Shown here piece by piece: positions 35,007-38,505 of a DNA stretch of 64,000 bases (position 1 is its first letter; every line of letters begins with the position of its first letter). Under the pieces are notes generated by a model that made no database searches, was not told the origin of the DNA, and saw only the letters and a program-made list of their open reading frames with translations. The position numbers and the translations under genes were made by a program. The stretch comes from Escherichia coli (GTDB lineage: Bacteria > Pseudomonadota > Gammaproteobacteria > Enterobacterales > Enterobacteriaceae). The DNA is taken from assembly GCF_003991155.1 (NCBI RefSeq), contig NZ_CP031293.1. One strand, written 5' to 3'.

Positions 35007-35011
35007 GGTTA

Positions 35012-35040
35012 GCGGCCCTCTTAGTGGGAAGAGGGCCGTA
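35012..35040. terminator. Bidirectional hairpin between ggt and yrhB frame
   Basis: cggccctctt ... aagagggccg inverted repeat read from sequence. Confidence 0.5.
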
Positions 35041-35043
35041 TTG

Positions 35044-35328
35044 TCAGGGCAAGCCGAAGGTAGCCTTTTTTATTTCATAATCCTGTAGATATTCTTCCAG
35101 TGGCTTTGCCGTTCCCAGAGAATGAATTTCACCACTGCCTTTATCAATAATAAAAGGTGCGTTACCAGCTAAGCGCGCGGCCTCATCTCCAGATTCAAGA
35201 AATTATTGTGATTCGAAACAGAAATACCAGCCCTGGCTAAAACGTCCATGCAGAGTGATGACGACAGGGAGATCTGCATCATCAAGGTAATGGTTCGCTT
35301 TCGCGAATGCGTCGTGATAAGTAATCAT
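35044..35328 (-). pseudogene. yrhB: yrhB-like reading frame interrupted by in-frame TAA (41 aa N-terminal part plus 52 aa continuing frame)
   Basis: Hand translation of minus strand: MITYHDAFAKANHYLDDADLPVVITLHGRFSQGWYFCFESQ-stop(35203..35205)-FLESGDEAARLAGNAPFIIDKGSGEIHSLGTAKPLEEYLQDYEIKKATFGLP-stop(35044..35046). The continuous 94-codon frame matches my recollection of the length of K-12 YrhB. Confidence 0.55.
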
Positions 35329-35777
35329 AATTATAATAAATATTATTGTTGATCGTTATATTATTATTCTTGCGTTATACTTTGAGAAAAGACGCGTTCA
35401 TCTTCGTCAAAGATATTATTAAATGCTGGTTTTGAAAAAAGTTCATCGGGTAATATACAGTCACGAAATAAGTATCTGCTAATGTTTTGTGATTTCTTTT
35501 TCAGAACGTCGAACGGGATTTTCTTATTTAAGATATCAGAATCTTATGATTCGGGTGAAATTCTAACTAAATCAACATGTCACTAAAATCATCATAGCCA
35601 TTAGCTATTTCGGCTAAAATAGAGATTACATGTCTTCGGTCCATCTCACTTAAGGAGTGTAGTTCCGTTGTAAGTTTTTCCATAGCTTGCATTGCTAAGT
35701 TTCGAACAAGGAATTTTCTGCTGGTAATCTCTAAAAAGATGGCATGGTTTATAATGATTTTTGTTACCTTTTGATTA

Positions 35778-36272
35778 TTATGAACAACTGTCCATGATTT
35801 CGTTTAAGAATGAAGAGAAATCACTAAACGAACTGAATATATTTTCTGTGCCAATATTATCTCTAATTTCAAAAAAGTTATTTTTAATGTCATAAGTAAA
35901 TATTGAAATGCTATCATCCCCGATCACTAACCGTTCTTGTAGATCAGGGTTTATGAAATCATCATTATTTCTATAAAATTCATTTACGGCAAAAAGGTTT
36001 TTAACTGAAGGTTCTGGAATCGAGAGGCTGAATAATCGTAATCCATTAACTTCGAATCCATCCATTGCTCTTAAAAAAGTAAGATAATCAGGTTGATTAT
36101 TAAAGAGAATACTAACTTCATTACATAACTTCTCCAGGCAATTAGTTGGATTAGAATTAAATTTTATTTGGATTATACTTTCAATAAATGATTCCTTGAG
36201 CGGTGCTTCAAATGGATAGTCTAAATCATTCATCATTTTTTTTAATTTATTTATTTGGGTTTTAGTCATCAT
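35778..36272 (-). CDS. Putative immunity protein for the upstream Hcp-HNH effector (yrhA-type position)
   Basis: ORF track 164 aa, AT-rich, start overlaps effector stop (ATGA); position immediately downstream of a polymorphic toxin gene. No catalytic motif recognised. Confidence 0.55.
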   Translation of the reverse strand: MMTKTQINKLKKMMNDLDYPFEAPLKESFIESIIQIKFNSNPTNCLEKLCNEVSILFNNQPDYLTFLRAMDGFEVNGLRLFSLSIPEPSVKNLFAVNEFYRNNDDFINPDLQERLVIGDDSISIFTYDIKNNFFEIRDNIGTENIFSSFSDFSSFLNEIMDSCS

Positions 36273-37447
36273 TTTGTGGGTTCCATAATATTTTTCATGG
36301 GAGGATAAATTGAGCCAGATGGAATGGCCCAGGGAGTGATTTTGCTTTCACCTACTAATATTCCCTTAGCTATTCGTGATTGCATGTTAGTAAAAACTTT
36401 ATGATATGGTTCGTTTTCGATTAATACTAAATTTTCGAAATCATTAGTACCACCATCATCTAGAGATAGTTTATGGTGAACATTATAATTTAGAGGAACA
36501 TTGCCCTTTCTCATTCTTAAAAGGTCTTCGGCGTTGAATCTTCCAGATGCTTCGGAGGTTTTTGCAAGTTTGATAAGAAAATTTTTTCTTACAGTTTTAT
36601 TAAACTCCTTTCGTAAGTTAGCTAAGTCTTTTGAAGGTCTCTTAATGTATATTATTTCTATTATGTCTATACCATCAAGAAGTTTTTGTTGACCTCTAAG
36701 TTTGCCTAAGTAACTATTTATTTCTGTATATGTATCAACATTAGAACGCTTTGTTAAAAGAATAGATGCTGTTGCTATCGCTATGCCCGCTGTTTTTTCA
36801 TTTAGTATTTGATCATAGCCTTTTATTGCATCTCCACCCAGTTTTTCCGCAGTATCTCTGAATCCTTCAATGTTCCCATTGTATACGCCACCAGCAGCAA
36901 GTAGCCTGCCAATAGCTTTGCTGTTTAACGTTTTGAAACGATTATTTGTTTGGTTTTTTGAATTTGGTAAAAACAAACAGTTATAATTTTCAGGGAGTGC
37001 CAAATAGCTGAACTCGGTATTTGCGATAATCTGTTGACAGAGGATAAATTCATAACTAACAGTTATTGTTTCTGTATCCAGTTGATTTTCAATGATCTGA
37101 TGATGAATAGCCGATAAAAAAGCGCCTCTTAGTTGTATATAATAATACTTTTCCCATCTACCAAATCTATTTATTCGATAGAAGTCAAATCCCATAAATA
37201 ATTGTTCATTATTGTTAATGGAATTAATAAATAATGGAGTGCTTTTATCAATTAATTTACAAAATGTTATACCATGGAACTGTGAACCAAGCCCCGTATT
37301 AGTAATACTATTTAAGAGTGAGAATGTAAATATTTCATCCTCATGCCCGCTCTGCCAGCGATTACCTGTAGACTCAGAAGTCCCACAACCTGCGGAGATG
37401 CTTCCTTGTTGTTCTCCCGTTACTGTCAGGTAAACAATATTACTCAT
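36269..37447 (-). CDS. yhhZ: Hcp-domain protein with C-terminal HNH-type nuclease toxin domain (Hcp-ET type, yhhZ)
   Basis: ORF track 392 aa. N-terminus MSNIVYLTVTGEQQGSISAGCGTSESTGNRW...GHEDEI matches the Hcp fold signature; C-terminus NYNVHHKLSLDDGGTNDFENLVLIENEPYHKVF carries an HNH-like motif. Confidence 0.82.
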   Translation of the reverse strand: MSNIVYLTVTGEQQGSISAGCGTSESTGNRWQSGHEDEIFTFSLLNSITNTGLGSQFHGITFCKLIDKSTPLFINSINNNEQLFMGFDFYRINRFGRWEKYYYIQLRGAFLSAIHHQIIENQLDTETITVSYEFILCQQIIANTEFSYLALPENYNCLFLPNSKNQTNNRFKTLNSKAIGRLLAAGGVYNGNIEGFRDTAEKLGGDAIKGYDQILNEKTAGIAIATASILLTKRSNVDTYTEINSYLGKLRGQQKLLDGIDIIEIIYIKRPSKDLANLRKEFNKTVRKNFLIKLAKTSEASGRFNAEDLLRMRKGNVPLNYNVHHKLSLDDGGTNDFENLVLIENEPYHKVFTNMQSRIAKGILVGESKITPWAIPSGSIYPPMKNIMEPTK

Positions 37448-37682
37448 CCCTGAAAAGTCCTTTTATGGCATGCTATTTTATTAATGGCACTATTATGCTT
37501 GTTAATTGTTATTTATTTACTCCAGGAAATTGTAGGCGTATATATTAATAATAAAATATTACACTTTAGGACGTAATTATGAGGTAAATCTCAATATATT
37601 TATTGGGCAAATAAATACATTAAAGGAAGATATGCCGATTTTGAATGACGCCCTTTTTCCATCTCAGAAAAAGGGCACTATC

Positions 37683-38171
37683 TTATTTCACCCGCGCCAT
37701 ATAATACGCATCGACATATTCACCATTACGTAATGCGTACTTCTTGCCAGTCCCTTCAATCTCAAAGCCGAATTTTTTATAGACCTTAATTGCTGGCGCG
37801 TTATCGACGAACACCGTTAGCTCGATACGATCTACCCGCAACCAGTTGTCGCACATATCAATCATTTCGCGCATCAGGGCGCTGGCGACGCCGCGGTTCT
37901 TCCAGCGAGAGTCGACACAGATACCAAAATCGGCAACATGACTGCGGCGCGGGCGTTGCTGTACATCAATGGTGAGATGACCTACTACGGTTCCATCAAT
38001 ACAGGCGACGAGTTGCTTGATGCCGGGGCGTTCGGCGAGTCGCTCCTGCCACATATAGTCTGAAGGATGAGGCACCTGTAGCGTGTTGTAATACACCTCC
38101 GGCTGGGCGTGAATCTGCCTGATGGCCTCGTAATCCCGTGTTTCTGCGTGGCGTATCACTATCTCACTCAT
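37683..38171 (-). CDS. yhhY: GNAT-family N-acetyltransferase YhhY
   Basis: ORF track 37683..38264; start moved to MSEIVIRHAET giving 162 aa; GNAT acetyl-CoA motif region (RWKNRGVASALM). Confidence 0.88.
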   Translation of the reverse strand: MSEIVIRHAETRDYEAIRQIHAQPEVYYNTLQVPHPSDYMWQERLAERPGIKQLVACIDGTVVGHLTIDVQQRPRRSHVADFGICVDSRWKNRGVASALMREMIDMCDNWLRVDRIELTVFVDNAPAIKVYKKFGFEIEGTGKKYALRNGEYVDAYYMARVK

Positions 38172-38293: not shown

Positions 38294-38386
38294 GCGATCA
38301 GGAAGACCCTCGCGGAGAACCTGAAAGCACGACATTGCTCACATTGCTTCCAGTATTACTTAGCCAGCCGGGTGCTGGCTTTTTTT
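38294..38386 (+). ncRNA. ryhB: Fur-regulated small RNA RyhB
   Basis: gcgatcaggaagaccctcgcggagaacctgaaagcacgacattgctcacattgcttccagtattacttagccagccgggtgctggctttt matches the RyhB sequence as I recall it, ending in a GC hairpin plus U-run; lies between yhhY and yhhX as in K-12. Confidence 0.85.
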
Positions 38387-38505
38387 TTGATCTTTCGTTT
38401 TCAAATTATCCACGGGAAGTGCTTGTGTTCGTTATGCGCACTCCAGTAGGAACCACGTCCGCTTTGCGCTAAGGTGTAAATAACCCCCTTAAAAAGGACG
38501 AAATC

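Follow-up and report, generated by a model that had tools for sequence, protein, structure and literature searches.

The DNA analysed here is a stretch of 64,000 nucleotides from Escherichia coli (contig NZ_CP031293.1 of assembly GCF_003991155.1; hereafter, the window), which corresponds to the ugpQ-yhhA-ggt ... yhhY-yhhX region of E. coli in an orientation reversed relative to that of K-12. Between ggt and yhhY lies an island of 33.5% GC that carries, on the minus strand, yhhZ, yrhA, the segment that concerns us here, and yrhB. The segment fills the interval between the ATG of yrhB (35328, minus strand) and the stop codon of yrhA (35778-35780) exactly. The features referred to below are as follows:

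35329..35777, minus strand: the yrhA-yrhB interval (the segment), 449 bp, 31% GC, single-copy
35528..35785, minus strand: relic 1 ('yrhD-long'), 85 codons plus the K-12-equivalent stop at 35528-35530
35567..35683, minus strand: the annotated part of yrhD (MEKLTTELHSLSEMDRR...), 38 codons, with a premature TAG at 35567-35569
35361..35528, minus strand: relic 2, with AAT in place of ATG at 35526-35528, 53 codons at 35367-35525, and TAA TAA at 35361-35366
35329..35360, minus strand: the yrhB leader, 32 nt, AT-rich, without the AGGAGG ribosome-binding site of Citrobacter sp. FP75
35044..35328, minus strand: yrhB (Pfam Imm35), a pseudogene with an in-frame TAA at 35203-35205
35778..36272, minus strand: yrhA, intact, 164 aa, NCBIfam 'YrhA family', containing the empty IS1E target site
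35883..35891, minus strand: the unoccupied IS1E target site GACATTAAA, single copy, within yrhA
36269..37447, minus strand: yhhZ, Hcp plus a putative HNH nuclease domain, intact, 392 aa

Outside the island, RyhB, an iron-responsive small RNA (38323-38387, plus strand; Rfam RF00057, 83 bits), is found between yhhY and yhhX, as in K-12.

The original prediction, made from the letters alone, had described the segment as an AT-rich spacer of about 450 bp that contains only short frames, and this description holds. Its GC content is 31.2%, whereas the whole window has 52.0% and the island around the segment (35043-37700) has 33.5%, and the longest open reading frame initiated by ATG, GTG, or TTG comprises 41 codons (35567..35692, minus strand). 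The AT-richness is the same as that of the rest of the island, and is nothing special. The lengths of the stop-free runs in the segment are not clearly above chance (P = 0.05-0.4, dinucleotide shuffles), so the case for past coding has to be made from homology, and ORF length is no evidence for it. An Rfam scan gave no match in the segment, and the only sub-threshold matches, two in number and attributable to chance, both lie outside it. A repeat search found no IS-like or other meaningful repeats.

It had also been claimed that there is no IS1 at this locus and that K-12 carries an IS1 in yrhA; both statements proved correct. No copy of the IS1 terminal inverted repeat occurs in the 64-kb window when up to three mismatches are allowed, there is no transposase ORF in the window's ORF list, and GACATTAAA is present once. 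In K-12, IS1E interrupts yrhA and is flanked by two copies of GACATTAAA, a 9-bp duplication (the insertion of IS1E within K-12 yrhA is also described in PMC12428005). Comparison with K-12 places the empty site at 35883-35891, which is in yrhA and ~105 bp outside the segment.

The genes on either side of the segment belong to a recognizable type of locus. Pfam and NCBIfam searches of YhhZ identified Hcp and a sub-threshold HNH match (17.3 bits vs. the Pfam cutoff of 21.4 bits), which would make YhhZ an effector of the Hcp-ET type, with an HNH nuclease domain joined to Hcp. Hcp proteins whose C-termini are extended by toxins, among them an HNH DNase type, are described effectors that have immunity genes downstream (reviewed in PMC6730261), and YrhA is presumed to be the immunity partner of YhhZ. 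On the other side of the segment, YrhB matches Imm35 (PF15567), with 81.8 bits for the K-12 protein and 68.7 bits for its FP75 homologue. In the window strain, the TAA of yrhB is at codon 42, within a cluster of five substitutions in 24 nt relative to K-12, and RefSeq carries an 'internal stop' note on yrhB in an identical genome. We also observed that E. coli yrhB is without a recognizable Shine-Dalgarno sequence; the FP75 homologue has AGGAGG 6 nt 5′ of its ATG, and the alignment puts a 12-nt gap in E. coli (35329-35345) where FP75 has AGGAGG (L024, 4262-4295).

The segment shares 95.5% nucleotide identity with the K-12 yrhA-yrhB interval, which contains yrhD. The original prediction had pointed to a 37-codon frame on the minus strand, MEKLTTELHSLSEMDRR...; the frame exists, but it comprises 38 codons and is the annotated gene yrhD (b4612; UniProt P58037, 'uncharacterized protein YrhD'). 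It begins at the second ATG (35683) of the 41-codon ORF mentioned above. In K-12, yrhD encodes 51 aa, and there are four differences between that allele and the window allele in the 156-nt ORF. The window allele has TAG instead of TAT (Tyr39) at codon 39 (35567-35569), which leaves 38 codons, and RefSeq records a partial YrhD pseudogene in a genome that is identical across the region. A word-indexed protein search with YrhD returned short E. coli ORFs only, and Pfam and NCBIfam scans of YrhD and of the conceptual translations of the segment frames gave no family. One apparently divergent YrhD (P0013, 76% identical) was not accepted as a real variant, given that its changes all look like C->T; the changes in P0013 and P0017, both from Logan assemblies, include H->Y, S->F, R->W, A->V, and P->L, and suggest bisulfite-converted or deaminated reads.

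At the level of the species, the segment is single-copy and chromosomal, and is found at the same locus in about 3800 of 5426 complete E. coli genomes. Distant-mode blastn against E. coli genomes detected no diverged paralogue, and tblastn of plasmids detected no plasmid copy, the three 'hits' being chromosome-sized records. In an evenly spaced sample of the matches, the sequences fall into three haplotype groups. The window-type haplotype (at least 98% identity) accounts for about 13% of matches and has the truncated yrhD. The K-12-type haplotype (about 95.5%) makes up about 73% of matches and has an open yrhD, whilst the B2-type haplotype (about 91.8%; about 12% of matches) has both an ATG to ATA change at the yrhD start and an internal TAA. 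The lesions are independent, with TAG in the window type and ATA plus TAA in the B2 type. In the K-12 type, which is found in ~3/4 of the E. coli that bear the island, not only is the 51-codon yrhD open, but the full 85-codon frame of relic 1 is also stop-free, and this unbroken frame may retain some residual function via a non-canonical start. In the B2-type ExPEC strain XM (L003, 3441-4619), we noted that yhhZ/tssD has an internal stop and that yrhA is intact.

The ggt-yhhY site itself (35007-37700 in the window) is found in several states in E. coli (L006-L009): a full island (about 3750 genomes), yrhB only, a DUF4225 gene instead, an empty site in which about 60 bp separate ggt from yhhY, and a deletion associated with IS1, which in strain AR_0369 has left yrhB and 125 bp of the segment only. 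The island decays at different places in different lineages. In genomes with yrhB only, homology ends 13 nt past the yrhB ATG, and the segment therefore belongs with the yhhZ-yrhA block.

We gathered related loci via homologues of YrhA and then read their genomic contexts. When the segment was compared by tblastx with about 50 kb of these loci, similarity to coding sequences was found across essentially the whole spacer. One match (E = 8e-11) linked an 85-aa gene of Citrobacter to the second minus-strand frame, in which a 59-codon stretch without a start codon is open and which contains relic 2, and a weaker match linked the yrhD frame to an 82-aa gene in a CDI locus of Leclercia. According to the original prediction, the spacer holds what decay has left of further immunity or effector cassettes, and the resemblance of the spacer to coding sequence in related loci supports that inference. 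More precisely, relics of immunity type are supported, with a function that their position suggests by analogy; an effector remnant was not found in the E. coli spacer.

For relic 2, the parent gene is still present at the same chromosomal site in Citrobacter. In Citrobacter youngae the order at this site is yhhY - Hcp-toxin - YrhA - 85-aa gene - 87-aa gene - ggt, and the 53 codons of the E. coli frame at 35367-35525 form an ungapped alignment with codons 2-54 of the Citrobacter 85/86-aa gene, with 45-49% identity (45-47% for the 85-aa protein). The gene occupies this chromosomal locus in three Citrobacter genomes, and the tblastn scores of relic 2 are 46-54 bits, whereas none of 1000 dinucleotide shuffles scores above 21.9 bits. 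One more carrier, Citrobacter sp. FP75, emerged when species-representative genomes were scanned; there, the order is Hcp-toxin (with a different C-terminal domain) - 86-aa gene - yrhB homologue (Imm35) - 83-aa gene - ggt. The FP75 86-aa gene starts one base after the stop codon of the Hcp-toxin gene and precedes yrhB, as in E. coli. The E. coli DNA is colinear with that of FP75 from the 86-aa gene into yrhB, apart from a deletion of ~86 nt that corresponds to the 3′ third of the gene, and the start codon of relic 2 is replaced by AAT (35526-35528). Four intact members of the 85-aa family were found, in three Citrobacter genomes, and a 24-aa piece of the FP75 toxin lies directly 5′ of one paralogue, g85c of Citrobacter portucalensis. 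The FP75 Hcp-toxin gene (L024, 2746-3999) is itself interrupted, codon 81 being followed by an in-frame stop. The C-terminal domain of this toxin gives no match in Pfam, and contains HVHPDGTLRSSLGD, which, by eye, we take to fit the JAMM/JAB metalloprotease motif HxHx7SxxD.

The other part of the segment corresponds to a different family. In BLASTP, relic 1 matches the Leclercia 82-aa protein with 39% identity over 56 residues (E = 9e-12), and the match begins 5′ of the ATG annotated for yrhD. About 38 proteins of 82-85 aa, from Leclercia, Lelliottia, Buttiauxella, Pantoea, and other bacteria, are related to the Leclercia protein. In a MAFFT alignment with 16 family members, the E. coli frame that runs between the stop codons of yrhA and yrhD matches from end to end, including the C-terminus, and the K-12 yrhD stop falls where proteins of the 82-84-aa family naturally end. 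A family HMM that was built without E. coli gives the three haplotypes scores of 49-52 bits, as compared to 9.2 bits for the best of 6000 shuffled translations. The first codon of the family corresponds to GTT (35783-35785) in E. coli, in a position that overlaps the last 8 nt of yrhA; GTT is found there in all five E. coli haplotypes examined, and the family start in none. The 51 codons annotated as yrhD make up the C-terminal 60% of the 85 codons of relic 1, and their reading starts at an internal Met that is conserved in the family. An AlphaFold model of an 82-aa family member is a three-helix bundle (pLDDT 71), and on that model the annotated YrhD would start in the middle of predicted helix 2 and would be without the most conserved segment of the family, KIIADxAIFLEF. 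A PDB profile search and a Foldseek search with the AlphaFold model of the 82-aa family gave no significant neighbour and were uninformative, and no Pfam or NCBIfam model matches either parent family. One member of the 82-aa family, P0172, bears the NCBI name 'MafI family immunity protein'; this assignment was not retained, as neither P0172 nor four other members had an NCBIfam or Pfam match at E <= 10.

The relatives of both relics come together at the ggt site of C. portucalensis (GCA_029104065.1; L027, 767-6120), where the array comprises eight small genes, from five families, and two Hcp-toxin genes that differ in their C-terminal domains. Their order is Hcp-ET1, g84a, g84b, g85c, YrhA, g85d, Imm35, g87, Hcp-ET2, g86. 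The 82-aa family is represented by g84a, the 85-aa family by g85c and g85d, and the 87-aa family by g84b and g86; in the whole array, the 85-aa family is present twice and the 87-aa family three times. The start of g84a overlaps the Hcp-ET1 toxin stop by 17 nt, and g86 likewise overlaps the stop of the Hcp-ET2 toxin. Pfam gave no match for the toxin C-terminal domains of this array. Over its last ~100 aa, Hcp-ET1 shares 78% identity with an ORF located directly 5′ of a member of the 82-aa family in a CDI locus of Lelliottia, and pieces of 14-17 aa of the Hcp-ET1 C-terminus lie directly 5′ of family members in two further locus types (L019-L022). In the CDI loci, the 82-aa gene follows the CdiA-CT/CdiI pair and precedes orphan CT modules.

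Taken together, relic 1, relic 2, and the 32-nt yrhB leader explain the 449 bp almost base for base, with the lost start of relic 2 abutting the stop of relic 1. We conclude that the segment is very probably the decayed remainder of two small, co-oriented orphan genes of immunity type, left from a toxin-immunity array at the ggt-yhhY hot spot. What was observed directly is the homology, the lesions, the synteny, the neighbourhood of the intact relatives, and the near-neutral divergence of relic 1. Each relic has an intact homologue in immunity position, namely g84a for relic 1 and the FP75 86-aa gene for relic 2, and in the relatives these genes travel with specific toxin C-termini; no such fragment is found in E. 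coli, and the island holds no toxin C-terminal remnant beyond yhhZ itself. In CDI, Rhs, and Hcp-ET loci, cognate immunity genes are usually recognized by these two features, their position and their travel with the 3′ end of one particular toxin. By analogy, gene position and co-travel with toxin ends suggest that the parent families would be immunity proteins.

The most economical history would be one in which older toxin-immunity cassettes at the hot spot were displaced by the yhhZ-yrhA cassette. Relic 1 itself descends from an ~82-84-aa gene that, in other Enterobacteriaceae, directly follows a particular toxin C-terminal domain carried by Hcp or CdiA, and relic 2 from the 85/86-aa gene that follows a different Hcp-toxin, that of FP75. 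The yhhZ-yrhA junction would have come to lie around codon 3 of the immunity gene that came next, with the loss of its start and ribosome-binding site, and both leftover genes would have drifted afterwards.

The pattern of divergence is in keeping with drift for relic 1, and is ambiguous for relic 2. Haplotypes differ by 4.4-8.2% across the segment, which equals or exceeds the synonymous divergence of yrhA and yrhB (pS 0.02-0.13). Whereas pN/pS is mostly about 0.14-0.4 for yrhA and yrhB (an outlier being yrhA in the window vs. K-12 comparison, at about 0.7, from two synonymous and six nonsynonymous changes), it is 0.9-1.5 for the full 85-codon frame of relic 1, and the divergence of relic 1 is near-neutral. 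For relic 2, pN/pS is 0.2-0.6 from very few sites. Between the window and K-12, relic 2 has five synonymous and four nonsynonymous changes, so that synonymous changes are above expectation on the basis of nine sites, and this excess could reflect either recent constraint or chance.

These data bear directly on the possibility that yrhD is a genuine, functional 51-aa small-protein gene, that the segment is otherwise ordinary intergenic DNA, and that the window strain merely carries a null allele. We consider this unlikely, even though yrhD is annotated in K-12, is intact in roughly three-quarters of island-bearing genomes, and was present as 68 identical copies in one study (PMC3575317). With one exception, the changes between haplotypes in yrhD are all nonsynonymous, nonsense, or start-loss (pN 0.06-0.07 vs. 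pS 0.03), so that pN/pS is at least 1, and the gene has been inactivated independently in two of the three haplotypes. An intact ORF under purifying selection is not what is found: codon 39 is a nonsense codon in the window, there are the B2-type lesions, and pN/pS is at or above 1. Genomic SELEX did identify a sigma-70 RNA polymerase site upstream of yrhD, which is listed as a constitutive promoter (PMC3946193) and has the sequence TAGAGA-18-TATATT, found at 35865..35836 (minus strand) in the window. Against a gene at this point, no ribosome-binding site is evident 5′ of the yrhD ATG when the sequence is read by eye, homologues of the 51-aa form are found in E. coli only, the ORF begins within predicted helix 2 of the parent family without the KIIADxAIFLEF segment, and the literature searched contains no report of detection of YrhD protein. 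As to the position of the TAGAGA-18-TATATT site, it lies inside the 3′ part of yrhA, downstream of the point at which IS1E is inserted in K-12.

A different reading is that the segment is non-coding regulatory DNA, made up of the promoter and leader of yrhB and of AT-rich DNA bound by H-NS. Although, in genomic SELEX, a weak site for sigma-S RNA polymerase was located between yrhD and yrhB, and the region upstream of yrhD was marked as associated with H-NS (PMC5493296, PMC3946193), we regard this as quite unlikely to be the explanation of the segment, since regulatory signals are compatible with a relic origin and do not replace it. Promoter-like hexamers are present at 35388..35360 and 35352..35324 (minus strand), but in the promoter and terminator scan such matches occur at chance level (five found vs. 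5.9 expected from shuffled sequence), and yrhB is a pseudogene in the window strain, so any promoter there serves nothing. A block of ~60 nt (about 35385-35445) is nearly invariant among haplotypes; its support is marginal, with one difference vs. about 4.8 expected by a hand estimate made before correction for the choice of window. There is no Rfam match that would speak for a structured element. Any present-day activity of the segment is probably limited to transcription signals and the yrhB leader.

Finally, the idea that yrhD and the downstream open frame are the halves of one gene of ~106 aa, split by a frameshift, has practically no chance of being right, for although the two frames abut within 13 nt and some database entries join them via sequence variants (P0006), the halves match two unrelated families that are each complete at 82-86 aa, the HMM of family 1 gives no score on family 2, family 1 naturally ends where yrhD stops, and relic 2 sets in at codon 2 of family 2. 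When the fused yrhD and second-frame query was searched exhaustively with HMMER against 1.84 billion representatives, nothing was found outside E. coli at E <= 1e-3; two repeat proteins were rejected, as they scored only by the adding up of weak repeats. With the halves being two separate families, a single frameshifted gene is ruled out.

If the segment is read as two decayed orphan genes of immunity type, yrhD, which is uncharacterized and restricted to the species, gains an origin: it would be the tail of a dead immunity-type gene, and not a small protein that arose de novo. Its annotation should accordingly be changed to pseudogene or relic, which matters for counts of 'orphan' or small-protein genes. 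The database-wide searches failed here, and the homology was revealed only by comparing syntenic loci. That comparison also brought to light three unannotated families of small proteins which, with their likely Hcp- or CdiA-borne toxin partners, are candidate effector-immunity pairs. On balance, we favour a wider view in which the ggt-yhhY site is a depot of immunity cassettes shared across Enterobacteriaceae, with at least three undescribed immunity families (82-84-, 85/86-, and 81-87-aa), each cognate to an uncharacterized toxin domain borne by Hcp or CdiA, and with yrhD as the fossil of one of them. If so, the K-12 'orphan gene' yrhD would record a past replacement of one toxin cassette by another.

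Orphan immunity genes and toxin-CT/immunity modules have reportedly been described downstream of polymorphic toxin loci by Zhang and colleagues in 2012 and in the CDI and Rhs literature. The segment resembles the orphan immunity arrays of Rhs, CdiA, and Hcp-ET loci in several ways. The relics are on the same strand as the toxin-immunity pair yhhZ-yrhA and directly downstream of it; several small, unrelated genes are involved; the cassette content of one site varies between genomes; and the intact relatives of the relics abut toxin C-termini and carry their fragments. Unlike orphans that protect their host, both E. coli copies are dead, through the loss of start codons, nonsense mutation, and deletion, and unlike orphan toxin-CT modules, no toxin-CT fragment lies beside them. 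In K-12, the same sequence at the same locus is annotated, in the form of yrhD, as a 51-aa gene in its own right. Its small neighbour in the array, yrhB, belongs to a recognized immunity family (Imm35, PF15567), to which the relics have no sequence relation, and the MafI family immunity proteins are likewise small and encoded beside polymorphic toxin genes. Rather than a new kind of system, the segment is a fresh instance of a known process, the decay of orphan immunity genes beside a polymorphic toxin gene.
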